A stretch of 64,000 nucleotides of DNA, taken from a virus. Positions 31,340-57,405 of this stretch are shown piece after piece. The notes under the pieces are model-generated. The model was not told where the DNA came from. It saw only the letters and a program-made list of their open reading frames with translations, and did no database searches. Both the position numbers and the translations under genes were made by a program. Each line of letters opens with the position of its first letter. Positions within the stretch are counted from its first letter, which is position 1. The stretch lies in IMG/VR virus record IMGVR_UViG_3300037501_000212, one strand, 5' to 3'.

Positions 31340-31340
31340 A

Positions 31341-31967: not shown

Positions 31968-31975
31968 GGCATACC

Positions 31976-41445: not shown

Positions 41446-41930
41446 TGTTTTCAGCTTGGCGAAACAGGTTGCTGCTTGACTATGCACAGTGGATCATAGA
41501 CCACCCACTTACAAGAGAGATGGGTGCTCCAATTGATGGAGAAGGTCCAGTCTATTTTTCTGCAATTGATGATTCTGAGATAGAAATTTGCAAGGCTCTT
41601 TGGGAAGGCAATGACTACTTGCGCATTCCTCCACCCAGAAGGATTTGGAACAGCCAATTCTGCAATGACTTTGACAAGTGGCGCGATGCATTCTGGAGAA
41701 TGGCAAATGCATTGGCAGATGGGGTTGAAAGGATACACACAGAAGGCATTGACAAGTTCCACTTGCCAGTGTTTGGCAGAGGTATTCAGCTGGTGCTTGC
41801 TGCTCAAGCAGTGCAGCTCAAAAGCGTAACAGTGGGGTGCTACAAATTCCCGTACGCAGTTGAACAGTTTTTGGAATATGCCATTCGCAGGCCAGAAATA
41901 TCTTACATCAAGGAGGTGTTGGTATGGTAG
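41439..41930 (+). CDS. hypothetical protein
   Basis: 163-aa ORF overlapping both neighbours within the sugar island. Confidence 0.5.
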   Translation: MVMFSAWRNRLLLDYAQWIIDHPLTREMGAPIDGEGPVYFSAIDDSEIEICKALWEGNDYLRIPPPRRIWNSQFCNDFDKWRDAFWRMANALADGVERIHTEGIDKFHLPVFGRGIQLVLAAQAVQLKSVTVGCYKFPYAVEQFLEYAIRRPEISYIKEVLVW

Positions 41931-43581: not shown

Positions 43582-44510
43582 CTGTAACATTGCAGCAACT
43601 GATTGATGACCCGAACACAAGCGATAAGGACAGGGAAGACTACAAGGTTGTCCTTGATCGCTACAAGGCCTGTGATGTTTGGGCCAACAAGATTCATGGC
43701 AAGGTTGGTGTGCTTTTAACATCACACCCTGGCAATCGTGCCTTTTTGAAGGCTTCTGCAGAAAGCCACAAGCAGCTTGGATTCTGGATGGTGCTGGCTT
43801 ACGACAACTATCTTGATCCATCAAGGCCTGACCTGGAATGGAATCACATCATGCCGTATCGAGATGTTACGGACATGTTCAACACCATTCTGGTTGGTCC
43901 ACACCAAACCTGGGGTGGTGTGCTGTATCCATATTTCTGGCTGCTGAGAATTGGTGTTGAAGCTCTGAATTGTTTTGATTACATATACTGTGCAAATGGA
44001 GACTGTGTTCTGGAAAAGCCTGAGAACTTCCCAGCTCTTATGGACATGCTTGGTGATGGAGACATCATGGGGTGTGGTTGGGAAGACAATGGCAGTCGTC
44101 CGATCTTCAACACCACTGGCTTCATCGCAAAGTCCAAAGCAGCCAGTGCTATAATGAAGCACTTCCAGGATCATCTGATTCCACTGGCTGCTTATGAAGA
44201 GTCAGCTCCAACCTTCGGCAACACAGAAGGTCGCTTTGCCAGAGCCATCTTGGACCTTGGGTTGAAGGTGGTAAAGGTTCCTACCAACCCAAACGACACT
44301 CAGTTGTCAAGATCAAGTGGCACTTGGTACGAGAAGGTTGGCTTCCGCCATATCCATGGCGAGTACAACAAGGCATACAGATACAAGCTTGTGCCACCTG
44401 AGACAAAATACCTTGACAGCAGGTACTTCAACAAAGCTGAGCTTGATCTGTTGGATAAATATCACGAGACAAAAGACCAAAAGGTGCTTGAGGAATGGTG
44501 GGCGAAATAA
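43578..44510 (+). CDS. hypothetical protein, paralogue B (candidate GT-A-like transferase)
   Basis: 310 aa from MTVTLQQL, with an ATGA overlap. Tandem paralogue of 42577-43581. Confidence 0.55.
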   Translation: MTVTLQQLIDDPNTSDKDREDYKVVLDRYKACDVWANKIHGKVGVLLTSHPGNRAFLKASAESHKQLGFWMVLAYDNYLDPSRPDLEWNHIMPYRDVTDMFNTILVGPHQTWGGVLYPYFWLLRIGVEALNCFDYIYCANGDCVLEKPENFPALMDMLGDGDIMGCGWEDNGSRPIFNTTGFIAKSKAASAIMKHFQDHLIPLAAYEESAPTFGNTEGRFARAILDLGLKVVKVPTNPNDTQLSRSSGTWYEKVGFRHIHGEYNKAYRYKLVPPETKYLDSRYFNKAELDLLDKYHETKDQKVLEEWWAK

Positions 44511-44989
44511 CAAGAGTGCAGGAGCTTAGGCAGCTTCTGCTTACTATATTGGAAACAGCCTTCCAGGAGAATGGTGATGTTGTCGCCAAGCAGCAGCTTG
44601 GTGTCAGTGTCTCAAATGCCATAAAGAAGGATGGTGGTGTTCTTGTCATACAGAACCAGAATGTTGAGGTGTATGCAAGGATAGTGCCGTCAATGGTAAA
44701 GGCCATACGCATCTGTGACATGATTGATGAGCAACCAATCAAGCTGCTGCCAACACCAATGTCAGAGCCAACTGTTGTTGATTCTGTAGCTGGCGACCCT
44801 GTGGATGATTGCTGCAAATATTTGCTAAGCAAAGGCACCAAATGGGAGGATATGCAAGAAATAGTGAAGTCAAGATATCTTAAGCATGTTGTAGAAATGG
44901 CTGGCAAGAAATCAGAAGCTGCTAAATGGCTTGGGATTGGCCCAACATACATTTGCAAGCTGCTAAAACAACACAATGGAGGAAGCTAA
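44495..44989 (+). CDS. protein with a C-terminal Fis-type HTH (HTH_8)
   Basis: The C-terminus RYLKHVVEMAGKKSEAAKWLGIGPTYICKLLKQH matches the Fis/NtrC-type HTH pattern. Confidence 0.5.
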   Translation: MVGEITRVQELRQLLLTILETAFQENGDVVAKQQLGVSVSNAIKKDGGVLVIQNQNVEVYARIVPSMVKAIRICDMIDEQPIKLLPTPMSEPTVVDSVAGDPVDDCCKYLLSKGTKWEDMQEIVKSRYLKHVVEMAGKKSEAAKWLGIGPTYICKLLKQHNGGS

Positions 44990-44990
44990 A

Positions 44991-45416
44991 ATGAAACCGA
45001 GAACCATCATGCTGCTGCTTTTCGTCTTCACAATTGGAGTCCTGTTCACTACGGTCCCTACTTTTGCTCAGCAGGCAAGTGGAGTCAAAATCATGTGGAA
45101 CCAGCCAGCCGCTGAGCTACCTTTTGTCAAGGAGTGGATCGTCTACGAAGGCAACGCAGCCAATCCTACGACCGAGCTGGCAAGGTTGCAAAACACAGGT
45201 GGCCCATTGACAACCAATGTTCCAATCAATGTTAGTGGAGCTCCTGGCACAAAGGTGCAGAAGTACTATTCTGTGTCTGCAGTTGGCATGAATGGCAAGG
45301 AGACAGCCAAGACACCTGGCACTACATCTGGTGGAATCTCGTACTTGGAATTTACGATTCCCTATCCGGACGTGACTGCTCCGCAGTCAGTCATCTTTGA
45401 GATTGTGTTCAAATGA
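44991..45416 (+). CDS. secreted/exported protein, FN3-like
   Basis: Signal-peptide-like MKPRTIMLLLFVFTIGVLFTTVPTFAQQ. The body (IMWNQP...EWIVYEG...YYSVSAVG) resembles a fibronectin-III-like beta-sandwich. Confidence 0.5.
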   Translation: MKPRTIMLLLFVFTIGVLFTTVPTFAQQASGVKIMWNQPAAELPFVKEWIVYEGNAANPTTELARLQNTGGPLTTNVPINVSGAPGTKVQKYYSVSAVGMNGKETAKTPGTTSGGISYLEFTIPYPDVTAPQSVIFEIVFK

Positions 45417-46327
45417 AGAAGCTGCTTTTCAACTTGATGCTGGCTATGGCGCTGCTGCCTTCATTGGCAGCAGCACAGGCACTTCACTACTACCAGAGCA
45501 ACCCAGGCAAGTCAGTCAATGTTGCTTGGGACCACAGCAAGTTTACCATCAGTTGTTCTGGAACACTTGTTGAAATCAGTCCTGCCACCACCAGCTTTGT
45601 TTGCGATGGCAGGACATATACAGTTGTTTGGACTGGTGGAGCAGTTAGGATAACTGGCAAGAATGCAGACGGCACAGATTATTTGTACAATGGCAGCATC
45701 AAGTACAAATATCGTGCAGTAGTCACTGGCGGATCGAGCCAAATAAGCATTGTAGCCAATGGGCCAGGCAGCTATCCATTCCTTATTCCAAATGCAGGCC
45801 AATACCATGTTTGGGGATATGTAAGGCGTGATTCCACGACTGGCAGGAACTCCTTCTTTTACAGCATGGACGGCTCTGCACAAAGAATATGGGCAACACC
45901 ATCCGGAACACCAGATGGAGAGTGGCTTTGGGATAGGATCAACGATGGGACGTCGCTTGGTGAACAAGGACCTATAGTTGTGTTTCAGCTGGCATCTGGT
46001 CAGCACACCTTGGTGCTGCTGGAGCGAGAGGCTGGTACAGGACTAAATGGAATGGTTGTTGCACCAACTTCTGTTGCATCTCCATCTGCAGAGACTGAAC
46101 TGCTGTTTGGCGAAGCAACTGGAAATACACTGCCAATAAACCTTAATACTCTTGGTGACATTCGCATCGAAGTGGCTGCTGTGCTGACAGATTCTGGTGG
46201 AGAGAAAATGTCAGCTTATGCAAAGTCAACAGATCCTGCCTATGCAACTGTTGATGGTGTTGCCAAGGGATGGATGGTTTCTTCAAGCTTGAGCAACCCT
46301 TCTGGTGTCGTGATGGCTGCCGAATAG
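45413..46327 (+). CDS. secreted/exported hypothetical protein
   Basis: Signal peptide MKKLLFNLMLAMALLPSLAAAQA. 304 aa. Confidence 0.5.
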   Translation: MKKLLFNLMLAMALLPSLAAAQALHYYQSNPGKSVNVAWDHSKFTISCSGTLVEISPATTSFVCDGRTYTVVWTGGAVRITGKNADGTDYLYNGSIKYKYRAVVTGGSSQISIVANGPGSYPFLIPNAGQYHVWGYVRRDSTTGRNSFFYSMDGSAQRIWATPSGTPDGEWLWDRINDGTSLGEQGPIVVFQLASGQHTLVLLEREAGTGLNGMVVAPTSVASPSAETELLFGEATGNTLPINLNTLGDIRIEVAAVLTDSGGEKMSAYAKSTDPAYATVDGVAKGWMVSSSLSNPSGVVMAAE

Positions 46328-46336
46328 GAGGCTGCT

Positions 46337-46849
46337 ATGCCTGTCATGCACATACCAATCGATCTGTATGTTCCAAAGCAATCTTCTTCAGTTGCTGGCA
46401 ACTGCTATTGGAATGTCAGCACATTGACAGCTCTGGATGACGGCCATTGGGAGTTTGTCAAGGATGTTGATGGCTACATCTATGGAAGAGTGCTTGTGCC
46501 AAATAACCTGGCAGCTTCCCCAGCAGCCAAGATAGAGCTTTCCGTGAAGGCTCCTTCTTCTGGTGGTAATCGCAGTGTCAGATTCAAAGTCGCTGCACAC
46601 CCAGTGGCTGATGGCGAATCCATGAATCCATCAGCACTTTGCACACCAATTGAGCAGTTGTTGGATCTTGGTGCAACTGAGTATGCAAGAGGAATAATGG
46701 AATTCACTTTGCCAGTCACTGGCTCCTTTCCAATCGTTGCAGGAGATCTGCTGCTGGTGGAAATATGCCACTACGGATCACACATTAGCGATCTGCTGGC
46801 AGTGAACTGCCATCTTGATGAAGCCTACTTGGTCGTAGAGGTGGTGTGA
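46337..46849 (+). CDS. hypothetical protein
   Basis: 170-aa ORF with a GGAGG RBS. Confidence 0.5.
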   Translation: MPVMHIPIDLYVPKQSSSVAGNCYWNVSTLTALDDGHWEFVKDVDGYIYGRVLVPNNLAASPAAKIELSVKAPSSGGNRSVRFKVAAHPVADGESMNPSALCTPIEQLLDLGATEYARGIMEFTLPVTGSFPIVAGDLLLVEICHYGSHISDLLAVNCHLDEAYLVVEVV

Positions 46850-47904
46850 TGGGCTTGACCTTGCATGCAACTTCTGGCAGCAAAGCTGGAACTCTTTGCT
46901 GCGAGAATTTCTTTACCAAGAAGCAGCCATGGTCAATATGTTCTTGGATAAAGTACAACACCAGTGTTGGCTTCACATATACGCAAGGCAAAGGGCTTAT
47001 CGTACACAGCTCTCCGACAGCAATGTACACCTCAGAGGATGGATATACGTACAGCGAGGTTTCTGCAGAAGGAGATGGCATTGTTGCCAATGTTTGGTTC
47101 CACTCTGCTTATGTTCGCAATGGCAACAACCATTACGGATACTGCAATGGCAAATTGATGATGAGAGTCAGTGGATATGATCCGTCTGCATTTGATGCAG
47201 AGCTTCAAGTTGGTGGCATCAAGTACAGTGAAACAGAAAAGTATGCTGGTGTTGTTGGGCAAATGGCAGCACTCAAAGCTTGGCATGCTGCTTTGACTCC
47301 TGAGGAGATCAGGGCAGAGATGTACCAGTATGCACCAGTAAGATTTGCTGATCTTGGTGGGTACTGGCCTATGCTTGTGTATGGTGGAGAAGCTTACACA
47401 GTCAGAGATCAATCTGGCAATGGCAAACATTTTACTACAACAGATGCAATGGATGCCAGTGCCTTTGAATACTGGTTCCTGCCAGAGCCAAAGGGACCGC
47501 ATATTTCTCCGTTCAAACCAAAACATGGTGGGAACAGAGTTCCACGCTTGCTGAATCCAATTCGTACTTCAATTTGCTACGGACATGATACTGGTGTTAC
47601 AGAGGAAGTGAAGGCTCCTCTTGCACATTTTGTCACGAATGGTAAGCTTAGAAACAATCCTTACAATGACTATGAAGTTATAGAGCTTGATTTCGGTCAG
47701 TGGGCTGAGATGGTTGGAACAATTCGCATGCTTGGAACTGTTACTTGCCAAGTAAACACGTACAGATCATATGGGCCAGGCACTTTGACAAAGTATTACA
47801 AGACAGGCGCAACATCTTCTGGTTGCGAGGCTGACACTTGGAAGGTATTTTCAACTTCATTCGTAAGCCAAGGCTACGTAAAGGTGAGATTCGAGGCTTT
47901 ATGA
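46846..47904 (+). CDS. LamG/concanavalin-like lectin-fold protein with a shared fibre C-terminal module
   Basis: NVWFHSAYVRNGNNHYGYCNGKLMM...LQVGG...QMAALKAWHAALTPEEI is LamG-like (Laminin_G_3 style). The C-terminal ~100 aa are homologous to the C-terminus of 51015-52556. Confidence 0.55.
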   Translation: MMGLTLHATSGSKAGTLCCENFFTKKQPWSICSWIKYNTSVGFTYTQGKGLIVHSSPTAMYTSEDGYTYSEVSAEGDGIVANVWFHSAYVRNGNNHYGYCNGKLMMRVSGYDPSAFDAELQVGGIKYSETEKYAGVVGQMAALKAWHAALTPEEIRAEMYQYAPVRFADLGGYWPMLVYGGEAYTVRDQSGNGKHFTTTDAMDASAFEYWFLPEPKGPHISPFKPKHGGNRVPRLLNPIRTSICYGHDTGVTEEVKAPLAHFVTNGKLRNNPYNDYEVIELDFGQWAEMVGTIRMLGTVTCQVNTYRSYGPGTLTKYYKTGATSSGCEADTWKVFSTSFVSQGYVKVRFEAL

Positions 47905-48803
47905 GAAATGTTCTGGTAACTGGTGGAGCAGGCTTCCTTGGAAGCCACTTATGCGAAGAGCTTATCAAACACGATGATGTTTCAAGAGTTGTCTGTGTTG
48001 ATAACATTGTGACTGGCAGCTGGTCAAATGTAGACCACCTGATCGGCTGCAAGAAGTTCAAAATTTATGAATGTGATGCTATTGCTGCTTCTCAAATTGA
48101 CTGGAACTGGCTTGGTGGGCTTGATGAGATATATCATCTGGCATCTCCAACTTCTCCAGTGGCAATTAACAACTATAAGGAGATGACACGCAAGGTCAAT
48201 TCAATTGGAACATGTGCACTCATAAACCTTGCAAGCAAGCAAAAGGCCAAGATGCTTTTTGTTTCATCTGTCAAGGTCTATGGAGAATGTGATCGTGTTT
48301 CTGACTACATATTCGGGAAAAGAGTTGGTGAAGAGCTGTGTGCGCATGCTGGCCACAAGATTGCCAGGCTTGCCAGTGTGTATGGTCCTCGCATGGCTTT
48401 GAATGACTCAAGAGTTATTCCAGTTTTCATAACAAGGACTTTGCTTGGCCAGCCCATTCAGCTTTGGAATGGTGGCAATCAGGTTGACTCCTTCTGCTAT
48501 GTTGATGATGTTGTGAAAGGTCTTGTAAGCTACATGTCTTCAAGCAAGAATGGAGTAATAGAGTTTGGTGCTGAAAATGGCATCACCATAGCTGCGCTTG
48601 CAGAGAAGATTATGCAGCTGATTGGCACGACTGTTCCAGCTTGCACAACAGCAGTGAATGTTTCAGAAGAGTGCCATAAGGTTGTTGACATAAACAAGGC
48701 AAGGTCAGCATTGGGCTGGCAGCCAGCAGTCACCTTGGGGGAGGGGCTGCAATTGACAATCAACTATTTCAAAGAGGAAATGAAGAAGAGGAGAGATCTA
48801 TGA
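47901..48803 (+). CDS. NAD-dependent sugar epimerase/dehydratase (extended SDR, UXS-like)
   Basis: VLVTGGAGFLGSHLCEELI, VCVDNIVTGSWSNVDHL, SSVKVYG, Y..GK. ATGA overlap with the previous gene. Confidence 0.8.
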   Translation: MRNVLVTGGAGFLGSHLCEELIKHDDVSRVVCVDNIVTGSWSNVDHLIGCKKFKIYECDAIAASQIDWNWLGGLDEIYHLASPTSPVAINNYKEMTRKVNSIGTCALINLASKQKAKMLFVSSVKVYGECDRVSDYIFGKRVGEELCAHAGHKIARLASVYGPRMALNDSRVIPVFITRTLLGQPIQLWNGGNQVDSFCYVDDVVKGLVSYMSSSKNGVIEFGAENGITIAALAEKIMQLIGTTVPACTTAVNVSEECHKVVDINKARSALGWQPAVTLGEGLQLTINYFKEEMKKRRDL

Positions 48804-49507
48804 ACAAGATCAAGAAATGCTTATTCACATTGGCAACCAAAGGCTATGAAGAAGAGATGATGGAGCTGACACTGCCGCTCCTCAAGCAGTATGCAGACAA
48901 GATAAGAGCAGAGTTTCACATCATAGAAGGCAGAAAATTCCCAGAATGGCCTGTGCAGTGTGAAAAGCTGCAGATCTTTGATCTTGGCAGACAGATGGGC
49001 AATGATTGGAACATCTACATTGACTCGGATGCTTTGGTGCATCCTGAGATGATAGATGTGACGACATTGATACAAAAGGACACGGTGCTGCATGCTGGGA
49101 TGGATTATGCAAATGTCCGATGGCTGTATGATGAGTACTTCCTGAGAGATGGACGCAATATCGGAAGTTGCAATTGGTTCACTGTTGCCAGCGATTGGTG
49201 TCTTGATTTGTGGCGAATGCCAGACGATTTGACGCCAGAAGATGTTGCAGCTCGCATCATTCCAACAGTTGATGAGGAACTGACTGGCATGAAGACCAGC
49301 TTGAATCTTGCAGATGACTTCTTGCTCGGTCGCAACATAGCCAGGTTTGGCCTGAAGTTCAGACCATTGTATCAAATTCTTCCAGAGGTTGGGCTTGGCA
49401 ACAGTTTCTTCCTATGGCACCAATACACAAAGACGCCAGAGCACAAGCTTGAGGAGATGAAGCAAGTGCTGGCAGGCTGGCGACTTTTCCAGCCGTATGC
49501 CAAGTGA
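48800..49507 (+). CDS. possible GT-A-fold nucleotide-sugar transferase
   Basis: 235 aa with a DxD-like IYIDSDALVHPE after an N-terminal Rossmann-like segment. Weak assignment. Confidence 0.4.
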   Translation: MNKIKKCLFTLATKGYEEEMMELTLPLLKQYADKIRAEFHIIEGRKFPEWPVQCEKLQIFDLGRQMGNDWNIYIDSDALVHPEMIDVTTLIQKDTVLHAGMDYANVRWLYDEYFLRDGRNIGSCNWFTVASDWCLDLWRMPDDLTPEDVAARIIPTVDEELTGMKTSLNLADDFLLGRNIARFGLKFRPLYQILPEVGLGNSFFLWHQYTKTPEHKLEEMKQVLAGWRLFQPYAK

Positions 49508-49515
49508 GGTGGCTT

Positions 49516-50052
49516 ATGAAAAAATACAAGCTGCCAAAGATAAATGGTTGGATGAGTGATGAGGAGATGTATTGGCTTTATGAAAAGGCCAAGCTGATGG
49601 CTTCCATTGCTGAGATTGGATGCTGGCGTGGTCGCAGCACTCATGCATTGCTGTCTGGATGCACAGGTCCGGTCTTCGCAATAGACACATTTGAAGGAAG
49701 CCCAAGTGAAATTGACAGTGCTCACAGCGAAGTTGCCAGTCATGACATCAGAAGGGAATTCTTGAACAACCTGAGGAAGTTCAAAAACTTAGTTCCAATT
49801 TGCATGGACAGTGTTTCTGCGTCAAGATATTTTGCAGAAGAGTCAATAGACATGGTGTTCATTGATGGCAGTCATTCTTACAAGGATGTGTTGGCTGATA
49901 TTTGGAGATGGAAGCCAATATGCAGATGGCTTCTGTGTGGGCATGATCGTGACCAGGATGGTGTGCCGAAGGCTTTAAAGAAGCTTGGGCTAAAAATTAA
50001 AAAGGAGGCTGGCACAATTTGGTCTGTTGATATGACGGAGGTGCAAAAATGA
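49516..50052 (+). CDS. class I SAM-dependent methyltransferase (Methyltransf_24-like)
   Basis: IAEIGCWRGRSTHALL, MVFIDGSHSYKDVLADI. GAGGTGG RBS before ATG 49516. Confidence 0.65.
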   Translation: MKKYKLPKINGWMSDEEMYWLYEKAKLMASIAEIGCWRGRSTHALLSGCTGPVFAIDTFEGSPSEIDSAHSEVASHDIRREFLNNLRKFKNLVPICMDSVSASRYFAEESIDMVFIDGSHSYKDVLADIWRWKPICRWLLCGHDRDQDGVPKALKKLGLKIKKEAGTIWSVDMTEVQK

Positions 50053-51008
50053 AGGCACTTCTTGACAACGACACAATCCAAATTGAGATTACCAACCACT
50101 GCCACAAACGCTGTGCCAACTGCACTCGCTTTGTTGGGCATGTCCAGAAGCAATACCACATGGACTTTGATACCTTCAAACATGCTGTTGACAGTCTGGT
50201 TGGCTTCCCACATATGGTTGGCATCATGGGTGGCGAACCATTGCTGCATCCAGAGTTTGAAAGGTTCTGTGAATATGCTTTGAGCAAGATTCCTCGCATA
50301 CAGCTTGGTCTGTGGTCAGCCTTTCCAGAAGGCCATGAAAGCTACAGAGAAACGATCTGCAAAACATTTGGAAACATATTGCTAAACGACCATACCAGGG
50401 CTGACATCATGCACCATCCGTTCTTGGTTGCAATAGAGGAAGTGGTGCAAGATAAGGGCAAGATGTGGAACAAGATCAACAAGTGCTGGGCACAAGAGTC
50501 TTGGTCGCCATCTATAAATCCGCATGGTGCTTACTTCTGTGAAATGGCAGCTGCCTTTGCAATGTTGTTTGAAGGAACTGTAAACTTCATGCCTGGTTGG
50601 CCAATTGAGAGCAGATGGTGGGAGAGAATTCCAAAGGATTACACTGCCCAGATGGAGTGGTTCTGTCCACTTTGTGGTGGAGCTGCGCAGCTTAAGAGGA
50701 GAAGTAGCTTAGACAAGTTTGATGACATATCTCCATTGAATTTGAAGCGATTGAAGCCAATCTCGCAGAGAATCAGAGCTGGTAAGTACAAACTGCACAG
50801 CCTTATAGAAGTTGGCAGTGAGCAGGAAATGGGGGAGATGCAGTCTTATAAGAATCAAGGCTATCGAGATGTCATTGCTGCCCGCTACAGAATCTTCTTG
50901 ACACACAATGAACTTGGATTCAATGATCCCAAGCTGATGAGAGTCGGTCGTAAGATGGAGATGCAACCAACTTACATTGACAAATTAAAAGCGAGGTATG
51001 CAGCATAG
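50049..51008 (+). CDS. radical SAM enzyme
   Basis: IEITNHCHKRCANCTRF (CX3CX2C) followed by GIMGGEPLLHPEF. 319 aa. Confidence 0.75.
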   Translation: MKALLDNDTIQIEITNHCHKRCANCTRFVGHVQKQYHMDFDTFKHAVDSLVGFPHMVGIMGGEPLLHPEFERFCEYALSKIPRIQLGLWSAFPEGHESYRETICKTFGNILLNDHTRADIMHHPFLVAIEEVVQDKGKMWNKINKCWAQESWSPSINPHGAYFCEMAAAFAMLFEGTVNFMPGWPIESRWWERIPKDYTAQMEWFCPLCGGAAQLKRRSSLDKFDDISPLNLKRLKPISQRIRAGKYKLHSLIEVGSEQEMGEMQSYKNQGYRDVIAARYRIFLTHNELGFNDPKLMRVGRKMEMQPTYIDKLKARYAA

Positions 51009-51014
51009 CAGCCT

Positions 51015-52556
51015 ATGGCATGGGTAACTAACACTTGGAATACACCTGGAGTTACTAACTGGACTGTTCCTGCTGGTGTTTCCAGTATACGTATTCGAGT
51101 ATGGGGTGCAGGTGGCGGAGGTGGTGGAGCCAACAACAATGCATATTACAAAGATGCAGGTGGCGGTGGTGGCGGAGGCGGCTTTGCAGAGGTTACCAAT
51201 TACGCAGTTACTCCTGGTTCAAACCTTTCTATAACAGTAGGCAATGGAGGCAACAGAGGAGGCATATCTGGCACTTCGGGTGGTAACGGCTCTTTGTCTT
51301 CTGTGAGAGACGGCAACTTAGCTTTCATATGTGCAGCCAATGGAGGACAAAGAGGTAATGGCGGCAATATGATTCCTCCAGCTGCAGGAGGAAATGGTGG
51401 TATAGGCAATGCCGGAAATATTTTTAAAGCTGGCGGATCTGGAGCCTACGCCAGTGGAGACAGAGGCGGATCTGGTGGTGGTGCTGGCGGTGCCAACAAC
51501 AATGGCAATGGAAATAATGGAAATGGCAGGCCAGGAATTAACACAGGTTATCCGTCTTTAGGAGGTGCTGGAGGAAACGCAGACAGCAACGGCAATGATG
51601 CTGGAGGCAGAGGCGGCAACTCTGTAATGAACAACAACGCTTCTGCCAACACAGATGGTACTTGGCCTGGAGGCGGTGGTGGTGGACACCATGGCAATGG
51701 AGACACTGGGTATGGAGGCTATGGCGCTGCTGGTGGAGTTGTCATATTTTACAGCATTGCCAGTTCCAGCAGTCGGTCTTCAAGCTCCAGTTGTTCATCT
51801 TCCAGCTGCTCATCTTCAAGCAGCTCTTCAAAATCAAGCTCCAGTTCCAGCAGCAAGATACCGTCCATTTCCAGTTCCTCTTCATCAAGCAGCTCCAGCA
51901 GCAGTCAAGGATCATCTTCGAGCAGTTCAAAAAGCATGTCATCCAGCTCGAGCAGCATGTCTGCTGCTTGGCAAATTGAAGATGTTGTTCTAACAGGATC
52001 TGTCAGCAGCAGTTCCAGCAGCAGCAAATCGTCTTCTTCTTCCAGCAGCAGCCGTGGAAGCTCTTCTTCATCCAGTTCCAGTCGGTCAAGCAGTTCTTCG
52101 TCTTCAGTTTCAAGAAGCAGTTCTTCGAGCTCAAGCAGCATGTCGTCTTCATCCAGCTCCAGTCGCTCAAAGAGCTCTTCGTCTTCAAGCTCCAGCAGCC
52201 ACGCAGCTTTGACAACTGTTTGGGGTCAATCAACTGGATACAGCGAGGGCATTGCCAAGCCAATGGCTGGAAATTGGGATGTAGAAGCTGGCAGCATCAG
52301 TGGCTCTGGCGATTCTGAGAAGATGGTGCTTTCCAGTTACGAGTCTTACAGTGAATCAGATCCTTTCAATATCGGGAATATGGTTGGAGTTATCAAACTC
52401 AATCAATACAATGCTGGCTCCGGCAACGCTCCGACCATATACTACAAGACTGGTGTCACGCAAGCGTCTTGTGAGCAAGACCTTTGGCACCTTTACAACG
52501 GAGTCTCATTCAACTGCAAAGGTTGGGTAAAGATTCGGTTGTATAAGGCTGCCTAA
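51015..52556 (+). CDS. glycine-rich-domain fibre-like protein with an internal Ser tract
   Basis: N-terminal WNTPGVTNWTVPAGVSSIRIRVWGAGGGGGG...GGGGGGGGFAEV module. Ser tract at 51762-52199. C-terminal module shared with 46846-47904. Confidence 0.65.
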   Translation: MAWVTNTWNTPGVTNWTVPAGVSSIRIRVWGAGGGGGGANNNAYYKDAGGGGGGGGFAEVTNYAVTPGSNLSITVGNGGNRGGISGTSGGNGSLSSVRDGNLAFICAANGGQRGNGGNMIPPAAGGNGGIGNAGNIFKAGGSGAYASGDRGGSGGGAGGANNNGNGNNGNGRPGINTGYPSLGGAGGNADSNGNDAGGRGGNSVMNNNASANTDGTWPGGGGGGHHGNGDTGYGGYGAAGGVVIFYSIASSSSRSSSSSCSSSSCSSSSSSSKSSSSSSSKIPSISSSSSSSSSSSSQGSSSSSSKSMSSSSSSMSAAWQIEDVVLTGSVSSSSSSSKSSSSSSSSRGSSSSSSSSRSSSSSSSVSRSSSSSSSSMSSSSSSSRSKSSSSSSSSSHAALTTVWGQSTGYSEGIAKPMAGNWDVEAGSISGSGDSEKMVLSSYESYSESDPFNIGNMVGVIKLNQYNAGSGNAPTIYYKTGVTQASCEQDLWHLYNGVSFNCKGWVKIRLYKAA

Positions 52557-52567
52557 GGTCTTGACCG

Positions 52568-55500
52568 ATGCCGTGGGGCAATAACATATACACAAATGCG
52601 GGTAACGTTACCTGGACTGTTCCGTCTGGTGTTACCAATGTATTGGTACGAGCCTGGGGTGGTGGCGGTGGCGGCGGTGGTGGTAACGCTACTCATGGCG
52701 GTGGAGGCGGTGGTGGTGGTGGCTTCGCACAGTTTAATGCGATGGCTGTCACTCCAGGCCAAAACCATGTTTTGACTGTTGGTAATGGCGGCAATGGAGG
52801 AGCTGCCAATGCCAATGGTACTGCTGGTGGCAACACAATTATCCGCTGGAGTAATAACGCCAATGCGATGATTGCTGCCAGAGGGTCTGCTGGCCAGCGA
52901 GGTGCTAATGGCGCTGGTGGTGCTGGTGGAACTGTCGCAACATCTACTGGAAACTTGGAGTATGCTGGTGGCAACGGAGCTGCCAAGGCCACTGTAAATC
53001 CGGGTTCTGGCGGTGGTGGTGCGGGTTCTGGTGGCAATGGCTCGGCTGGATCCAACGGAGCCAATGCAGCTGGCGGTGCTGGTGGAGCTGCAAACAACAA
53101 TGCTGTCATTCCAAGTGTAGCTGGCGGTGCCGGTGGCAATGCCGTACTTAATGGTAATGGCGGCAATGCACTCGGTCCGGGCGGTGGTGGTGCTGGTGGT
53201 GGCGCTACCAACAAAGTAGGTGGCAGAGGTGGCGTAGGTCGTATCGAAATTTATTGGAGTATCGCTTCCAGTTCATCATCTTGCTCTTCTTCCAGTTGCT
53301 CCTCTTCATCTTGCAGTTCCAGCAGTTGTTCCTCGTCATGTTCAAGTTCCAGTAGCGGCACTTTGAGTTCTTCGTCCAGCTGCTCAAGCTCCAGTTGCTC
53401 AAGCTCCAGTTGCTCATCGTCGAGCAGCAGCAGCAGCAAACCTCCTTCTCCTTACGGATGGCAAACCGTAGTTTATACTCCAGGCAATTACACATGGACA
53501 GTTCCAGCTGGTGTAACTGGAGTAAGGATTCGTGCATGGGGTCCTGGTGGTGGCGGTGGTGGTTACAATGGCAATGCAGCCACTCCTGGAGGAGGTGGCG
53601 GAGGTGGTGGTTTTGCACAAGCCAACAACTTTGCAGTTACGGCCGGACAAAACCACAACATCGTAGTTTCTCCAGGAGTTGCGGGAGGAGCTGCTAATAG
53701 CGATCCTTCGTATGCCAACAACACGACTTTTTATCATACAAACAATGCTATTGTAATCCAAGCCACTTGTGGAAACAGAGGCAGAGTAACAGGGGCTGGT
53801 GGTGGATTTGGAAATGGCACCATAACTGCTTGGACCAATGTTTACAAAATGGGCGGCAATGGTGCCAACAACAATACAGCGACATATTCTGGTGCTGGTG
53901 GTGGTGGAGCCGGCACCACTGGCAATGGGTCGCCTGGCAACAACAACGGCTCGGGAGCTGGAGGAGGCGCTGGAGGTCTTGGCGACAATGGATCTACTGA
54001 TGTAGCGAACGGAGCTGGTGGCAACGGAGGAAATGCAGCCAGTGCAGGGTTCTTTGTGGGTGGTGGAGGTGGTGGAGGGAACAGTCTGTTCCGTGCGGGA
54101 GGAAATAGTGCAGATGGCAAGTTAGAATTGTACTTTAGTGTTCCGAGTGTTAGCAGCTCCAGCTCTTCATCGTCCAGCAACAGCAGCTCCAGTTCTTCAT
54201 CCAGTTCTTCATCAAGCTCTCCAGCAGCAGTAAGCAGTTCGTCCAGCTGCAGCAGCTCCAGCTCTTCATCGTCCAGCAACAGCAGCTCCAGTTCTTCATC
54301 CAGCTCCAGCAGCAGCTCTTCAAGCAGCTCCAGCTCCAGATCAAGCTCGAGCTCCAGTTCTTCTTCGTCCAATTCTTCGTCCAGTTCTTCAAGCAGCTCG
54401 AGTCGGAGTTCTTCAAGCAGCTCCAGCTCCAGATCAAGCTCGAGCTCCAGTTCTTCTTCAAGCAGGTCTTCATCCAGTTCTTCATCAAGCTCCAGCAGCA
54501 GTTCTTCAAGTAGCTCCAGATCAAGCTCGAGCTCCAGCAGCTCTTCAAGCAGGTCTTCATCCAGTTCTTCATCCAGCTCCAGCAACAGCTCTTCAAGCAG
54601 CTCTTCATCAAGCTCCAGATCAAGCTCCAGCAGCAGTTCTTCAAGCAGCTCCAGATCAAGCTCTAGCTCCAGCAGCTCTTCAAGCAGGTCTTCATCCAGC
54701 TCTTCAAGCAGTTCGAGTCGTAGCTCTTCATCCAGCTCTTCAAGCAGTTCGAGTCGTAGCTCTTCATCCAGTTCTTCAAGCAGCTCCAGATCAAGCTCGA
54801 GTTCCAGCAGCTCTTCAAGCTCAAGCAGTTCGAGTCGTAGCTCTTCATCCAGTTCTTCAAGCAGTTCGAGTCGTAGCTCTTCATCCAGTTCTTCAAGCAG
54901 CTCCAGATCGAGTTCGAGCTCCAGTTCTTCTTCAAGCTCAAGCAGTTCGAGTCGTAGCTCTTCATCCAGCTCTTCAAGCAGTTCCAGATCGAGTTCGAGC
55001 TCCAGTTCTTCTTCAAGCAGGTCTTCATCCAGCTCTTCAAGCAGTCGTTCTTCTTCAAGCAGCAGCCGTTCTTCATCCAGCAGTTCCAGCAGTTCCATCC
55101 AAAGCAGCTCCAGCAGCTCAAGATCTTCTTCGAGCTCCAGCTCCAGCTCCAGATCAAGCTCGAGCTCCAGCAGCTCTTCAAGCAGGTCTTCATCCAGTTC
55201 TTCAAGCAGTTCGAGTCGTAGCTCTTCATCCAGCTCTTCAAGTAGCTCCAGATCAAGCTCGAGCTCCAGTTCTTCTTCAAGCAAGTCTTCATCCAGTTCT
55301 TCAAGCAGTCGTTCTTCTTCAAGCAGCTCCAGCAGTTCCAAACAAAGCAGCTCCAGCAGTTCCAGATCAAGCAGTTCCAGTTCTTCTTCAAGCAGGTCTT
55401 CATCCAGTTCTTCAAGCAGTTCGAGTCGTAGCTCTTCATCCAGCTCTTCAAGCAGTTCCAGATCAAGCTCGAGCTCCAGTTCTTCTTCAAGCAGGTCTTC

Positions 55501-55930
55501 ATCCAGCTCTTCAAGCAGTCGTTCTTCTTCAAGCAGCTCGAGTCGTAGCTCTTCAAGTAGCTCTTCTAACAGCAGTTCTTCAAGCTCGAGCAGGTCCAGT
55601 TCCAGTTCCAGCTCCAGATCAAGCTCGAGCAGCAGCTTGTCATCTTCTTCATCAAGCAGCAGTCGAAGTCGCTCGCTCAGCAGCTCTTCATCCAATTCTT
55701 CGTCCAGCTCTTCTTCAAGCAGATATGGAACACCAGAGCTGGTTGAGCCAAGATGGAAGTTCAAGGCATACAAATATCGCTCAGAGTTCATGCTGCAACC
55801 AATGCAGCTTCGCATAGAACTAAAGGCTTGCATTGGCAAGCCCAAATTTGTGAACAGAGTATTGACATTGAGAACTAACCTTATAGCCCAGCAAGCCAGG
55901 CCAACCTTTGTGGCAAGGCTGGGAAGATGA
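52568..55930 (+). CDS. giant fibre-like protein: two glycine-rich modules, a (SSSSC)n linker, a ~523-codon poly-Ser tract and a basic C-terminal domain
   Basis: 1120 aa. Modules begin YTNAGNVTWTVPSGVTNVLVRAWGGGGGGGGG and YTPGNYTWTVPAGVTGVRIRAWGPGGGGGG. Ser tracts at 53267-53437 and 54152-55720 are in frame with both modules. Confidence 0.7.
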   Translation: MPWGNNIYTNAGNVTWTVPSGVTNVLVRAWGGGGGGGGGNATHGGGGGGGGGFAQFNAMAVTPGQNHVLTVGNGGNGGAANANGTAGGNTIIRWSNNANAMIAARGSAGQRGANGAGGAGGTVATSTGNLEYAGGNGAAKATVNPGSGGGGAGSGGNGSAGSNGANAAGGAGGAANNNAVIPSVAGGAGGNAVLNGNGGNALGPGGGGAGGGATNKVGGRGGVGRIEIYWSIASSSSSCSSSSCSSSSCSSSSCSSSCSSSSSGTLSSSSSCSSSSCSSSSCSSSSSSSSKPPSPYGWQTVVYTPGNYTWTVPAGVTGVRIRAWGPGGGGGGYNGNAATPGGGGGGGGFAQANNFAVTAGQNHNIVVSPGVAGGAANSDPSYANNTTFYHTNNAIVIQATCGNRGRVTGAGGGFGNGTITAWTNVYKMGGNGANNNTATYSGAGGGGAGTTGNGSPGNNNGSGAGGGAGGLGDNGSTDVANGAGGNGGNAASAGFFVGGGGGGGNSLFRAGGNSADGKLELYFSVPSVSSSSSSSSSNSSSSSSSSSSSSSPAAVSSSSSCSSSSSSSSSNSSSSSSSSSSSSSSSSSSSRSSSSSSSSSSNSSSSSSSSSSRSSSSSSSSRSSSSSSSSSSRSSSSSSSSSSSSSSSSSRSSSSSSSSSSRSSSSSSSSSSNSSSSSSSSSSRSSSSSSSSSSSRSSSSSSSSSSRSSSSSSSSSSRSSSSSSSSSSSRSSSSSSSSSSRSSSSSSSSSSSSSSSRSSSSSSSSSSSRSSSSSSSSSSRSSSSSSSSSSSSSSSRSSSSSSSSSSRSSSSSSSSSSRSSSSSSSSRSSSSSSRSSSSSSSSSIQSSSSSSRSSSSSSSSSRSSSSSSSSSSRSSSSSSSSSSRSSSSSSSSSSRSSSSSSSSSSKSSSSSSSSRSSSSSSSSSKQSSSSSSRSSSSSSSSSRSSSSSSSSSSRSSSSSSSSSSRSSSSSSSSSSRSSSSSSSSRSSSSSSSRSSSSSSSNSSSSSSSRSSSSSSSRSSSSSSLSSSSSSSSRSRSLSSSSSNSSSSSSSSRYGTPELVEPRWKFKAYKYRSEFMLQPMQLRIELKACIGKPKFVNRVLTLRTNLIAQQARPTFVARLGR
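54152..55720 (+). repeat. 1.57-kb degenerate tandem Ser-coding repeat
   Basis: Blocks of about 10-11 codons of S9-10 followed by R, N or K. The core AGATCAAGCTCGAGCTCC, or a near-identical variant, recurs at about 54338, 54431, 54518, 54788, 55151, 55250 and 55460. Confidence 0.9.
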
Positions 55931-56255
55931 TGGAGGTGCCTCTGTGGAATCATTCAAAATCATCCAGCCAGTCCATCCAAGTGAAGAAGGCTTTGTGGAA
56001 ATTGACATCAGTGTTTGGCTTGGCACTGATACGATCAAGAGTGTTGCCTACACAGCCACTGATGCAAAAACAGGAGAGGATGCAACATCTGCTGTGCTTG
56101 ACACAGGACTTTGCACCTTTTCTGGAAAGATCATCAAACCTTATATCAAGGGTGGCACAAACAAGAAAAGCTACAAGGTGCTTTCTCTTGTCACTTGCAA
56201 CGAGGTAACAGATGTTGGTGCGTTTGTTGTCGAGTTCGACACCAAGTCGCAGTAG
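55908..56255 (+). CDS. hypothetical virion-associated protein
   Basis: 115-aa ORF overlapping the end of the fibre gene, with beta-rich composition. Start uncertain. Confidence 0.4.
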   Translation: MWQGWEDDGGASVESFKIIQPVHPSEEGFVEIDISVWLGTDTIKSVAYTATDAKTGEDATSAVLDTGLCTFSGKIIKPYIKGGTNKKSYKVLSLVTCNEVTDVGAFVVEFDTKSQ

Positions 56256-57403: not shown

Positions 57404-57405
57404 AA

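Follow-up and report, generated by a model that had tools for sequence, protein, structure and literature searches.

The tail fibre gp24 of cyanophage Pam3 (PDB 7YPX, 7YFW) bears a distal glycine-rich domain that has been proposed to be the receptor binder (PMC9608196). In this protein the head is C-terminal, an N-terminal helical bundle both trimerises and docks on the baseplate, and the chaperone gp25 is required. A further phage protein with such a domain, gp33 of mycobacteriophage Bxb1, the 'tail wing brush', is an outer tail decoration that appears to be dispensable: the wing genes 30-35 are absent from a related phage and a deletion mutant of the wing-base protein gp30 is viable (PMC12646305). 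It is compact, with 267 residues, and sits on an arm formed by gp31 on gp30.

Extended serine-rich regions are known from other contexts. Those of the serine-rich repeat glycoproteins (SRRPs) of Gram-positive bacteria, e.g. Fap1, GspB and PsrP, are O-glycosylated by glycosyltransferases encoded nearby (PMC6973325, PMC7948813). In mycobacteriophages (Che8, Corndog and Myrna), the phages' own glycosyltransferases modify capsid and tail-tube proteins (PMC12363180, citing Freeman 2023). Finally, unmodified polyserine linkers occur in bacterial carbohydrate-active enzymes (PMC2386152, PMC2699552).

Here we analyze two consecutive genes of an uncultured tailed phage, from a 64,000-nucleotide stretch of its DNA (IMG/VR record IMGVR_UViG_3300037501_000212; hereafter the window). 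Upstream of them, on the same strand, lie genes for the terminase, portal, capsid, tube, tape measure, hub and a J-like protein, and downstream are membrane-protein-like ORFs. Their parts, and a small ORF overlapping the end of the second gene, are:

51015..52556, + strand: ORF A (513 aa), starting with the Gly_rich_2 head, then a poly-Ser stalk and a C-terminal domain
51015..51752, + strand: module 1 (ORF A aa 1-246); TNF-like beta-sandwich with polyglycine lattice, PF21722
51753..52199, + strand: ORF A poly-Ser stalk; 149 aa, 112 Ser, net charge +8
52200..52556, + strand: ORF A C-terminal domain, 118 aa
52568..55930, + strand: ORF B, 1120 aa; head, Ser/Cys linker, head, poly-Ser stalk, C-terminal domain
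52568..53263, + strand: module 2 (ORF B aa 1-232), by AF2 model and Foldseek
53264..53434, + strand: ORF B linker 1; 57 aa, periodic (SSSSC)n, ending in KPPSP
53435..54145, + strand: module 3 (ORF B aa ~290-526); second PF21722 stretch, by alignment
54146..55717, + strand: ORF B long poly-Ser stalk; 524 aa, 468 Ser, 37 Arg, net charge +39
55718..55930, + strand: ORF B C-terminal domain; 70 aa, basic, beta-strand-like pattern
55908..56255, + strand: 115 aa; overlaps ORF B at its end and weakly resembles gp77, the fibre-tail adaptor of podophage GP4

The first-pass annotation had recognized three modules of about 230 residues in these genes, each running straight into poly-Ser. Both observations hold: modules 2 and 3 are respectively 51% and 43% identical to module 1 over ~230 alignment columns, and poly-Ser begins directly at the end of every module, with tracts of 149, 57 and 524 residues. 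The start and end motifs that it quoted are recovered in the three-module alignment, in which 83 columns are invariant and cover the non-glycine motifs W..(P/A)G..WTVP(A/S)GV, R.WG.GGGGGG, GGGGGGGGFA(E/Q) and AVT.G.N; the modules end in VVIFYSIAS, IEIYWSIAS and LELYFSVPS. Its further suggestion that this is a glycine-rich domain of phage fibre proteins is borne out by profile searches with the Pfam model PF21722 (Gly_rich_2), which recovered ORF A with 71.3 bits (E = 1.5e-19; model positions 2-225 of 226) and ORF B with 74.4 bits in two stretches (E = 1.7e-20). All three modules lie above the curated gathering cutoff of 24.3 bits, so the similarity reflects homology and more than a common glycine composition. 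On these profile matches, the module is a version of the known Gly_rich_2 domain rather than a new one. This domain is also found in cellular proteins, for instance together with DUF11 or SprB repeats.

Profile searches further related the module to residues 76-284 of Pam3 gp24 (7YPX_A; E = 1.5e-24) and to Bxb1 gp33 (9D93; E = 3.5e-12). As had been suggested at the outset, the structure of a single module was predicted, and the AF2 model of module 2 is a confident one (pLDDT 89.5, pTM 0.89), with 9 strands and long glycine segments that are neither helix nor strand. Its best Foldseek match is 9D93_Q (7.9e-9), and it also matches 7YPX_A (5.4e-8, TM 0.65); chains of the ALK glycine-rich domain rank after the phage chains (E = 1.7e-3 to 4e-2). 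Names such as tail fiber, minor tail and glycine-rich domain-containing occur among the 273 matches in BFVD. By both sequence and predicted structure, the heads match the TNF-like plus polyglycine-lattice type seen in Pam3 gp24 and Bxb1 gp33. Hence, the module is less obscure than the first-pass annotation held when it called the function unknown: its fold has been solved in these relatives, and the Pam3 representative has been proposed to bind the receptor (PMC9608196).

Comparison with these relatives brings out what is distinct about ORF A and ORF B. They share with Pam3 gp24 a homologous TNF-like beta-sandwich and a glycine-rich lattice, made up of 12 motifs with 39% Gly in gp24 and of about 12 glycine-rich runs with 30-33% Gly in the window modules (by run count, 12 runs and 32% in module 1). 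However, their heads are N-terminal, one of them is a tandem duplicate, and they stand on poly-Ser stalks. The modules begin at residue ~5, leaving no room for a helical bundle like that of gp24; given the absence of this trimerising domain, the heads of ORF A and ORF B may not be trimers. Bxb1 gp33 shares the domain by both profile and Foldseek searches, but has no low-complexity stalk and, unlike ORF A and ORF B, no linked glycosylation cassette. The polyglycine-II lattices of the Salmonella phage S16 adhesin gp38 and of the ALK/LTK glycine-rich domain likewise display variable loops for ligands; S16 gp38 (6F45) is not among the best 50 Foldseek matches listed for the module 2 model, and these proteins are fold-class analogues of the module rather than close relatives. 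Predicted structures of 'collagen-like' proteins from the giant viruses megavirus and moumouvirus, recovered among the BFVD matches, also combine this glycine-rich head with a repetitive stalk, but those are viruses of eukaryotes and their stalk is a triple helix of collagen repeats.

The C-terminal domains offer fewer clues. That of ORF A has DUF4847 as its best, sub-threshold, family match, and its relatives were found neither in viral contigs nor among the module homologues; that of ORF B has no family match and no similarity to the module homologues. We propose that both are virion-docking ends, and the product of the overlapping 115-aa ORF is a candidate docking partner. This ORF scores 25.7 bits against PF23148 (cutoff 27), and no relatives were found in viral contigs.

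The tracts themselves stand out from the Ser content of the other genes of the window (5.5%). In the long tract of ORF B the Ser run length is most often 10, and in the stalks Arg or Lys recurs about every 11 residues; the ORF A stalk is broken once by a short non-Ser stretch, AAWQIEDVVLTG. If extended, the long stalk of ORF B would measure ~130-190 nm (524 residues, a length taken from one assembly). The layout of ORF B, with a short Ser-rich region, a binding region, a very long Ser-rich region and a C-terminal anchor, is that of the SRRPs, although the likeness is one of layout only. The SRRPs belong to cells: they carry a signal peptide, leave by accessory Sec export, are held by an LPXTG anchor and consist of SxSx dipeptide repeats where ORF A and ORF B have near-pure poly-Ser. 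None of these traits is seen in ORF A or ORF B: direct reading of their N-termini (MAWVTNTWNTPG... and MPWGNNIYTNAG...) revealed no hydrophobic signal peptide, and the LPXTG motif is absent from both proteins. The resemblance is convergent.

The pairing of module and Ser tract, implicit in the first-pass annotation, holds for all three copies in the window but does not extend to the family, since a Ser tract was present in none of the 51 + 150 module homologues screened by sequence, and several virion proteins unrelated to the module, in this phage and in its relatives, do have Ser or Thr tracts. As far as this screen indicates, the Ser tract is not an inherent property of the Gly_rich_2 module. 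The overall topology does recur in homologues. In the closest of them, P0063, the head is again N-terminal and is joined to a ~85-aa C-terminal domain by ~55 residues of (SPSx)n, a Ser-Pro repeat and not poly-Ser. Its neighbor, a protein of 2411 residues, has a ~410-aa N-terminal domain, ~1900 residues of (SPSx)n and a ~60-aa C-terminal domain. In all the cassette-linked Gly_rich_2 proteins (see below) the head occupies residues ~5-230.

Besides ORF A and ORF B, at least five further virion-module ORFs of the window carry Ser tracts, including:

23930..24127, + strand: 65-aa ORF directly after the capsid gene; C-terminal poly-Ser-KLP
24615..25121, + strand: 168-aa ORF in the head-tail region; N-terminal poly-Ser tag MSSSSSSSSSSCSSSS
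26079..26639, + strand: major tail (tube) protein, phrog_807; 19-aa poly-Ser C-terminal tail
33263..35875, + strand: J-like tail protein, 870 aa, phrog_1101, by translation
35932..36168, + strand: small ORF directly after the J-like gene; C-terminal poly-Ser-KLS

For the tube protein, we collected 52 complete homologues with 42-79% identity. All 52 have a terminal tail: poly-Thr in 39, poly-Ser in 4, mixed Ser/Thr in 4 and acidic Ser-rich in 5, with no Gly/Ala/Pro-rich tail among them. This interchange of Ser and Thr indicates that the hydroxyl, rather than flexibility, is what has been conserved. In the J-like protein ~200 residues of poly-Ser (35222-35824, net charge +20) are followed by a 17-aa C-terminus, and its relatives have poly-Thr/Ser tracts directly after the homologous core. 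In relatives, J-like and fibre-like proteins with SPRY or LamG heads show poly-Thr in the place of the window's poly-Ser. Homologues of the 168-aa ORF are tagged with poly-Ser (loci L001 and L009) or poly-Thr (L040, L052/53 and L076), or are untagged, and a Ser tract is also found at the position of the 65-aa ORF in L001, L009, L012, L056, L064, L067 and L070. Tracts in other phages include one of 1920 residues (L081) and one of 140 residues of Thr (L136). As terminal tails have no two domains to link, they are not linkers. We found no description of long homopolymeric Ser/Thr tags on phage proteins in the literature searched.

ORF A directly follows a conserved gene cassette, itself the end of a 15-kb sugar island:

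36200..39103, + strand: 967-aa protein with a C-terminal GT-B domain (Glycos_transf_1)
36200..47904, + strand: rest of the sugar island, from profile matches and the gene calls of a second assembly, L117
47838..48803, + strand: NAD-dependent sugar epimerase/dehydratase, first cassette gene (PF01370, E = 4e-33)
48800..49507, + strand: gt235, GT-A fold glycosyltransferase with a DxD motif (IYIDSDALV)
49504..50052, + strand: Methyltransf_24 methyltransferase between the gt235 and radical SAM genes, by profile match
50049..51008, + strand: putative radical SAM enzyme (sub-threshold match to PF04055), ending 6 nt before ORF A

The island also contains three Methyltransf_24 genes, an RMNT_CmcI sugar O-methyltransferase, a DegT aminotransferase, a LamG-domain protein and several ORFs with no assignment. 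No Pfam family matches gt235, but its AF2 model (pLDDT 93.1) has A64R of the chlorovirus PBCV-1, a viral glycosyltransferase acting on a capsid protein (2P6W/2P72/2P73; E = 1.4e-7), as its top Foldseek matches, followed by other protein-glycosylating GT-A enzymes. Some homologues have the Methyltransf_24 and GT-A domains in a single protein. Another phage (L081/L082) keeps the gene order epimerase, gt235, radical SAM, Gly_rich_2, with 33%, 54%, 55% and 62% identity respectively, and this order is seen again in L083 and L095. The radical SAM gene was found in 31 viral loci. In nearly all of the 19 closest loci, gt235 is accompanied by the radical SAM gene. These two genes are also present in loci whose available DNA has no visible Gly_rich_2 gene or Ser tract, indicating that the cassette is not dedicated to ORF A and ORF B. 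In several relatives with poly-Thr, the ~7 kb that follow the J-like gene yielded no window-like sugar genes, with L134 as the exception.

On balance, we lean towards the view that ORF A and ORF B encode accessory adhesins tethered by Ser stalks, and that these stalks accept O-linked glycans, making the virion mucin-like. The earlier picture of beads on a flexible, possibly glycosylated string fits this anatomy and draws support from the neighboring glycosyltransferase cassette; the glycosylation itself is inferred from these genes and from the Ser/Thr tags on the tube, J-like and fibre proteins. Like the mycobacteriophages and PBCV-1, the window encodes its own glycosyltransferases, and its tube protein bears a terminal acceptor-like tail. 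It differs from both in host lineage, enzymes and acceptor, its proposed acceptors being homopolymeric Ser/Thr tags of up to 524 residues on many tail proteins.

A less likely but serious alternative is that the same tethered adhesins have unmodified tracts, acting as flexible, hydrophilic entropic spacers or bristles, and that the sugar island serves another end, such as modifying a host surface polysaccharide during infection. Secreted carbohydrate-active enzymes of Saccharophagus, Teredinibacter and Cellvibrio do have near-pure Ser runs between a binding and another module. These linkers are tens of residues long and, to our knowledge, solely internal, never forming terminal tags or being swapped for poly-Thr. 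The regular Arg/Lys might merely keep a long Ser chain soluble, and some loci have the cassette but no visible Ser tract. Against this, many of the tracts are terminal (at the tube C-terminus, at the N-terminus of the 168-aa ORF and in the small ORFs), and the strict Ser/Thr interchange in the 52 tube homologues favors the hydroxyl. Moreover, the sugar genes lie within the late structural operon, no more than 6 nt from ORF A, and the GT-A enzyme has a virion-protein glycosyltransferase as its best structural match.

It is improbable, but worth considering, that the Ser/Cys tracts are instead substrates of a chemistry centred on the radical SAM enzyme, which might oxidise Ser/Cys to formylglycine, epimerise residues to the D form or form thioether cross-links, whether or not glycosylation follows. 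Its gene immediately precedes ORF A in a conserved pairing, linker 1 has periodic Cys and other tags also contain Cys. The CX3CX2C motif (C18-X3-C22-X2-C25) is invariant in 15 homologues, while the score against PF04055 is 28.0 bits (cutoff 29.5). Weak PDB profile matches point to the dehydrogenase BtrN and the peptide epimerase YydG as the nearest solved relatives, and partial NCBIfam matches are mostly to peptide-maturase families. However, the match to characterized families is limited to an N-terminal core of ~80 residues with E of 0.005 or worse, and most radical SAM loci have no Ser-rich ORF in the available DNA. BtrN-type enzymes act on sugar substrates and are paired with DegT-type aminotransferases, as in butirosin biosynthesis; with a DegT gene in the island, the enzyme is accounted for just as well if it serves in sugar biosynthesis.

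Still less probable is that the two proteins are morons, released or displayed on the host surface with a fibre-type domain and not part of the virion. Three points could be read in this way: an N-terminal docking domain of the Pam3 gp24 kind is missing, the C-terminal domains have no detected relatives, and Gly_rich_2 occurs in cellular proteins. Against them, no signal peptide is evident, the genes lie inside the late structural operon and on its strand, and similar Ser tags occur on bona fide tail proteins.

The DNA of the tracts bears on whether they are real. All six Ser codons are used in roughly genomic proportions and the DNA repeats are imperfect (59-97% matches), which argues for selection at the protein level and against a simple microsatellite. 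An independent Logan assembly, L117, agrees with window positions 38800-54181 at 100% identity, so that the repeats proposed earlier hold in a second assembly for ORF A and, in ORF B, for the two modules and linker 1, while the long tract breaks off at 54181, 36 nt into it; the exact length of the 524-aa tract therefore rests on one assembly. That this tract is an artefact of repeat expansion, collapse or chimerism is highly improbable: this break and the tandem periods of 81-135 nt found by TRF, with matches of up to 97%, might suggest it, but the parts that precede it in ORF A and ORF B are identical in L117, the frame stays open over 1572 nt of intermixed Ser codons into a non-repetitive C-terminal domain, and comparable or longer tracts occur in L081 and L136.

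Under the glycosylated tethered-adhesin reading, a siphovirus-type virion would carry the ORF A and ORF B proteins as accessory host-adhesion factors, each docked on the tail by its small C-terminal domain and presenting one or two heads at its free N-terminal end. Each head would be a TNF-like beta-sandwich that extends into roughly 8-12 glycine-rich strands, stacked as a polyglycine-II lattice whose variable tips may bind a host-surface ligand, and the stalks would space the heads from the C-terminal domain. The Ser/Thr tags on the tube, J-like, fibre-like and small-ORF proteins would be O-glycosylation acceptors too, forming a lineage-wide set. The epimerase, DegT and O-/C-methyltransferase enzymes of the late-operon island would build modified nucleotide sugars, possibly with the radical SAM enzyme as a dehydrogenase, and the GT-A enzyme and the GT-B domain protein would transfer them. 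A glycosylated stalk would be a stiffened, protease-resistant, mucin-like 'bottle-brush', keeping the multivalent heads tens to >100 nm off the tail and so enlarging the capture radius, and the first contact of these heads with the host surface would be reversible. What is unusual here is the placement of N-terminal heads on Ser stalks, the spread of such tracts over the virion proteins and their sugar-gene neighborhood, which together suggest a virus particle that is heavily sugar-coated.

The window contains two consecutive genes that encode three copies of a glycine-rich module:

51015..52556, + strand: ORF A, 513 aa
52568..55930, + strand: ORF B, 1120 aa

The module segments (residues 1-246 of ORF A, and 1-232 and ~290-526 of ORF B) can be aligned over ~230 columns, with the latter two showing 51% and 43% identity to the first. 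The 83 invariant columns of this three-module alignment include the non-glycine motifs WTVPxGV, R.WG, GGGGGGGGFA and AVTxGxN as well as the hydrophobic strand with which each module closes (VVIFYSIAS, IEIYWSIAS and LELYFSVPS); each module is 30-33% Gly and has 8-12 glycine-rich runs. The module of ORF A leads directly into 149 aa of poly-Ser, the first module of ORF B directly into a periodic (SSSSC)n tract of 57 aa (linker 1), and the second directly into a 524-aa tract with 468 Ser and 37 Arg, whose commonest Ser run is 10, roughly (S10 R)n. The Ser background in the other proteins of the window is 5.5%. These observations bear out the first-pass annotation, which had described three modules in two consecutive fibre-like genes, quoted their start and end motifs, and noted that every copy runs into poly-Ser. 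All six Ser codons occur in the tracts, in approximately genomic proportions, and the repeats at the DNA level are imperfect; selection is therefore on the amino acid. The homopolymers are hydrophilic, are punctuated by positive charges, and are followed in both proteins by short unique C-terminal domains. Some tracts also display regularly spaced Cys, which is unusual in an extracellular flexible region: 53264-53434 (the (SSSSC)n linker 1 of ORF B), 51762-51806 (ORF A) and 24615-24662 (the N-terminus of the 24615 ORF). An exact look-up of ORF A in the assembly collection returned no record, and a single-protein scan of viral contigs recovered no relatives of its C-terminal domain. BLASTP and phmmer comparisons of ORF B with the module homologues P0056, P0057 and P0059 found no shared C-terminal anchor below E ~0.2; accordingly, an anchor motif common to ORF B and its closest multi-domain homologues was dropped as a candidate.

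The module corresponds to the Pfam domain Gly_rich_2 (PF21722), far over threshold. A profile built from the three modules and 50 homologues matched the tail fibre gp24 of cyanophage Pam3 (7YPX, 7YFW; E 1.5e-24) and the 'tail wing brush' gp33 of mycobacteriophage Bxb1 (9D93; E 3.5e-12). Structure prediction of a single module, which had been proposed as a check, gave a confident AlphaFold2 model for the first module of ORF B (pLDDT 89.5, pTM 0.89), with nine beta strands and long glycine segments that are neither helix nor strand. In a Foldseek search of the PDB this model recovered 9D93_Q (7.9e-9) and 7YPX_A (5.4e-8; TM 0.65) as the top matches, followed by the glycine-rich domain of ALK. The glycine-rich domain of Pam3 gp24 is a distal fibre domain with a proposed role in receptor binding, in which twelve glycine-rich motifs form a four-layer lattice with hypervariable tips (PMC9608196), and the Pam3 and Bxb1 domains have been classed as polyproline-II/polyglycine-II bundles like S16 gp38 (PMC13243192). 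Bxb1 gp33 is located on an outer wing in which gp31 is mounted on gp30; a related phage lacks the wing genes, and Bxb1 remains viable when gp30 is deleted (PMC12646305). Thus, the module itself is already known and is almost certainly a binding head of this kind; given these matches, the earlier remark that its function was unknown is out of date. The fold is common in viruses, with 273 BFVD matches at E <= 1e-3, among them giant-virus 'collagen-like' proteins and proteins named tail fiber, minor tail or glycine-rich domain-containing; these names and PF21722 agree with the first-pass assignment of the N-terminal pattern to 'glycine-rich domain-containing' proteins of phage fibre loci. With the same E-value cutoff the three-module profile matched 7453 cluster representatives, and giant multi-module proteins are frequent in this set (e.g. 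5418 aa with seven modules). What distinguishes ORF A and ORF B from the known heads is an inverted head-stalk-anchor topology and stalks of homopolymeric Ser.

The window is a siphovirus-type genome, with the following starts for the genes of its head and tail module:

14275, + strand: terminase
17601: portal
21872: scaffold
22855: capsid
26079: tube protein (major tail protein)
27291: tape measure
29870 to 32782: distal tail and hub genes
32749: NlpC/P60 gene
33263: J-like tail protein

The tail tip (31976-33273) resembles the GTA/phiJL001 type, having a hub with Phage_phiJL001_Gp84_N and BR0599, then an NlpC/P60 peptidase and the J-like protein. A sugar island of ~15 kb (36200-51008), on the same strand and within the late structural operon, separates the J-like gene from the fibre-like genes:

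36200 (start), + strand: 967-aa protein with a C-terminal GT-B (Glycos_transf_1) domain
+ strand: four Methyltransf_24 genes and an RMNT_CmcI sugar O-methyltransferase
+ strand: DegT-type aminotransferase and NAD-dependent epimerase
+ strand: GT-A enzyme (gt235, 235 aa, 48800..49507) and radical SAM enzyme

ORF A starts 6 nt past the radical SAM stop codon. The island ORFs at 41439, 42577, 43500, 44495, 45413 and 46337 have no family match, and neither ORF 42577 nor the other family-less ORFs has a PDB match. A megablast of 40000-51000 against isolated phages found no match, and the window has no tRNAs. The first island gene is listed as a 1020-aa TTG ORF at 36041, and the listed 5' end overlaps a small ORF with a poly-Ser end (35932-36168) in a different frame; the start of the island gene is probably the ATG at 36200, which gives the 967 aa called in a second assembly, L117. 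On the other side of the fibre-like genes, a 115-aa ORF (55908-56255) shares 23 nt with the end of ORF B and narrowly misses the cutoff for the podophage GP4 fibre-tail adaptor gp77 (25.7 bits; cutoff 27); a single-protein scan of viral contigs found no relatives of it, and such an adaptor is unconfirmed among the cassette-bearing relatives. By eye, the three small + strand ORFs that follow (56262-57915) have features of membrane proteins: a C-terminal transmembrane segment (56262), a lipoprotein-like signal, …AASC (56852), and a coiled coil behind a transmembrane segment (57361). They may constitute a lysis or spanin cassette, which, if real, would suggest a Gram-negative host.

To trace the Ser tracts we screened the Gly_rich_2 homologues and surveyed the window by a six-frame scan. 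No poly-Ser tract was found in the homologues (0/51 and 0/150 sequences screened); P0124 (513 aa) and P0129 (1120 aa) were rejected as instances of the same architecture, their lengths being coincidental and their Ser content 11% and 7%. The scan of the window recovered further tracts:

24615, + strand: ORF with a Ser tract at its N-terminus
26580-26636, + strand: Ser tail of 19 aa at the C-terminus of the tube protein
33263..35875, + strand: J-like protein with a ~200-aa Ser tract near its C-terminus
after the capsid gene and after the J-like gene, + strand: two small ORFs with Ser tracts at their C-termini

The Ser tracts are, hence, a property of the phage and not of the module. Relatives carry tracts at the same positions. 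For the J-like protein a single-protein scan of viral contigs found no relatives, and profile queries were needed. The comparison that decides the matter is the tube protein: all 52 complete homologues of the tube protein from related contigs (42-79% identity; loci L001-L080 and L114) end in a hydroxyl-amino-acid-rich tail of 14-34 residues, which is poly-Thr in 39, poly-Ser in 4, mixed Ser/Thr in 4 and acidic Ser-rich in 5. The tube protein falls in a PHROG family whose name refers to an Ig-like domain; the window protein has no match to that domain. Poly-Thr/Ser tracts also lie directly downstream of the homologous J-like core in relatives, and fibre-like proteins with SPRY or LamG heads further downstream bear internal and terminal poly-Thr; in two related loci (L131 14208-17761 and L136 15826-18570) such proteins have poly-Thr linkers and tails, and one of 914 aa is 34% Thr. 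Since Ser and Thr are freely exchanged, the hydroxyl emerges as the conserved feature. A rival explanation, namely that the tracts are unmodified flexible spacers like the polyserine linkers of Saccharophagus and Teredinibacter enzymes, would suit the internal tracts, but is at odds with the terminal tails, which cannot serve as linkers, and with the Ser/Thr interchange. We consider O-glycosylation of the tracts somewhat more likely than not. The literature searched yielded no descriptions of Ser/Thr homopolymer tags on phage proteins, and we regard these lineage-wide tags as a new variant on virion glycosylation and Ser-rich glycoprotein adhesins.

The capsid protein has at least 149 relatives in IMG/VR (64-91% identity; contigs up to 95 kb), and identity to isolated phages reaches only ~30% at most, for the portal protein. 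Three contigs with capsid relatives (L114, L116 and L115; 67-79% identity) were binned with Desulfobacteraceae, Desulfovibrio and Zixibacteria MAGs, which is only a weak hint as to the host, the binning of phage contigs being unreliable; a radical SAM enzyme in the phage genome would be in keeping with an anaerobic host.

The closest homologue of the first head of ORF B (P0063; 62% identity) has its parts in the same order and differs in the stalk: a linker of ~55 aa, (SPSx)n, joins the N-terminal head to a C-terminal domain of ~85 aa. Its gene is preceded by a cassette like that of the window, comprising an epimerase (33% identity), a 231-aa protein (54% to gt235) and a radical SAM enzyme (55%), with further GT2 and GT17 glycosyltransferases upstream. 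Two ORFs downstream is a gene for a 2411-aa protein (L081 4346-11581; also in L085, with its start in L082), in which ~1900 aa of (SPSx)n stand between an N-terminal domain of ~410 aa that looks beta-helix-like by eye and a repeat domain of ~60 aa at the C-terminus. The source gene calls for L081 lie there on the opposite strand, probably an error of annotation due to the repeat. A single-protein scan of viral contigs found no relatives of the radical SAM protein; a profile recovered 31 viral loci. A gt235-type gene of 231-235 aa is present in 17 of the 19 closest, the exceptions being L097 (short) and L099. The Gly_rich_2 gene directly follows the cassette in L081/82/85, L083 and L095 and lies nearby in L088 and L098, with the head N-terminal in every cassette-linked protein.

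The gt235 family has over 1000 members, some fused to Methyltransf_24 (~397 aa), and no Pfam model; by sequence it gives only glycogenin matches at E ~1 around the DxD motif and sub-threshold GT21/GT2 Pfam matches. Its AlphaFold2 model (pLDDT 93.1) adopts a GT-A fold, with PBCV-1 A64R, whose entry text reads 'involved in the glycosylation of the major capsid', as the best PDB match, followed by collagen hydroxylysine galactosyltransferase, UGGT, STIV A197 and glycogenin. In the putative radical SAM enzyme the CX3CX2C motif is invariant, and the protein resembles BtrN and YydG only weakly. The adjacency of its gene and the periodic Cys of linker 1 have suggested a modification of Ser/Cys centred on this enzyme, but a sugar dehydrogenase working together with the DegT aminotransferase would account for it equally well. 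Like the tags and the inverted topology, the conserved GT-A and radical SAM cassette is a new variation on virion glycosylation and Ser-rich glycoprotein adhesins. The glycosylation model has a precedent: mycobacteriophage-encoded glycosyltransferases modify capsid and tail-tube proteins (PMC12363180).

ORF A with one head and ORF B with two, each at the N-terminal end, are encoded where the tail module ends, immediately behind the glycosylation genes, and the combination of cassette and head is found again in other phages. A role for both as virion adhesins is likely; that they are not virion proteins is unlikely in view of their gene position and shared tags. On the sequence evidence we lean towards tethered adhesins with O-glycosylated Ser stalks. 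The C-terminal domains would dock on the tail, with the weakly gp77-like ORF at 55908 as a candidate partner, leaving the heads as free ends, and island enzymes would glycosylate the stalks, rendering them stiffer and protected from proteases. If extended, the stalks would place the heads ~14-21, 37-54 and 131-189 nm from the anchor (assuming 0.25-0.36 nm/residue), and would thereby enlarge the capture radius and valency when the phage first, and reversibly, touches the host surface. In its layout ORF B resembles the serine-rich repeat adhesins of bacteria, in which a short Ser region, a binding region, a long Ser region and an anchor follow one another (PMC6973325); as ORF B lacks their export and anchoring signals, the resemblance is convergent.

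Whether the repeats might collapse on re-assembly, a concern of the first-pass annotation, could be examined with L117 (Logan, run SRR12686701; 44,337 bp, short-read), which is 100% identical to window 38800-54181. It reproduces ORF A, both heads of ORF B and linker 1, but ends 36 nt inside the long poly-Ser tract; the 524-aa length is, therefore, based on one assembly. An assembly artefact could thus apply solely to the length of that tract, the identity of L117 excluding it for all else. Truncation of such poly-Ser genes in metagenome assemblies is probably systematic. A reverse-strand Leu/Glu-rich ORF of 703 aa (53842..55953) and its companions (169 and 297 aa, within 54150-55556) invite mis-calling; we rejected them as frame shadows of the Ser codon repeat, because the + frame is continuous with recognized domains and the same tracts are in frame in the tube and J-like proteins. 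As a lesson for annotation, standard pipelines mis-call such genes on the opposite strand (L081) and short-read assemblies break there (L117).

A bolder and rather doubtful extension is that of a widespread uncultured tailed-phage family, binned in part with Desulfobacterota MAGs, with a proteoglycan-like virion, in which Ser/Thr homopolymers (~10 to >500 residues) would be programmable acceptor tags on tube, tail-tip and fibre proteins, modified by the GT-A and radical SAM pair. The modification might be a modified-sugar O-glycan or a radical-SAM-altered Ser/Cys backbone, and interchangeable heads (Gly_rich_2, SPRY, LamG, beta-helix) would yield long mucin-like tentacles. If true, both the structural principle of such phage appendages and the system that modifies their proteins would be new. 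Phage virion glycosylation was reportedly first demonstrated directly in mycobacteriophages (Freeman et al., 2023); in the present, unrelated environmental phage family, the sequence by itself points to virion glycosylation that is much larger in extent and more systematic. The homopolymer tags are easily recognized and so offer a way of predicting glycosylated phage proteins from sequence, and the uncharacterized, conserved GT-A and radical SAM pair provides directly testable candidate enzymes. The modular layout of head, tunable low-complexity stalk and small anchor could account for long flexible appendages on uncultured phages and might serve as a design for phage engineering. On comparative sequence evidence, these observations lead to the testable prediction that a widespread uncultured phage family would present a mucin-like surface.
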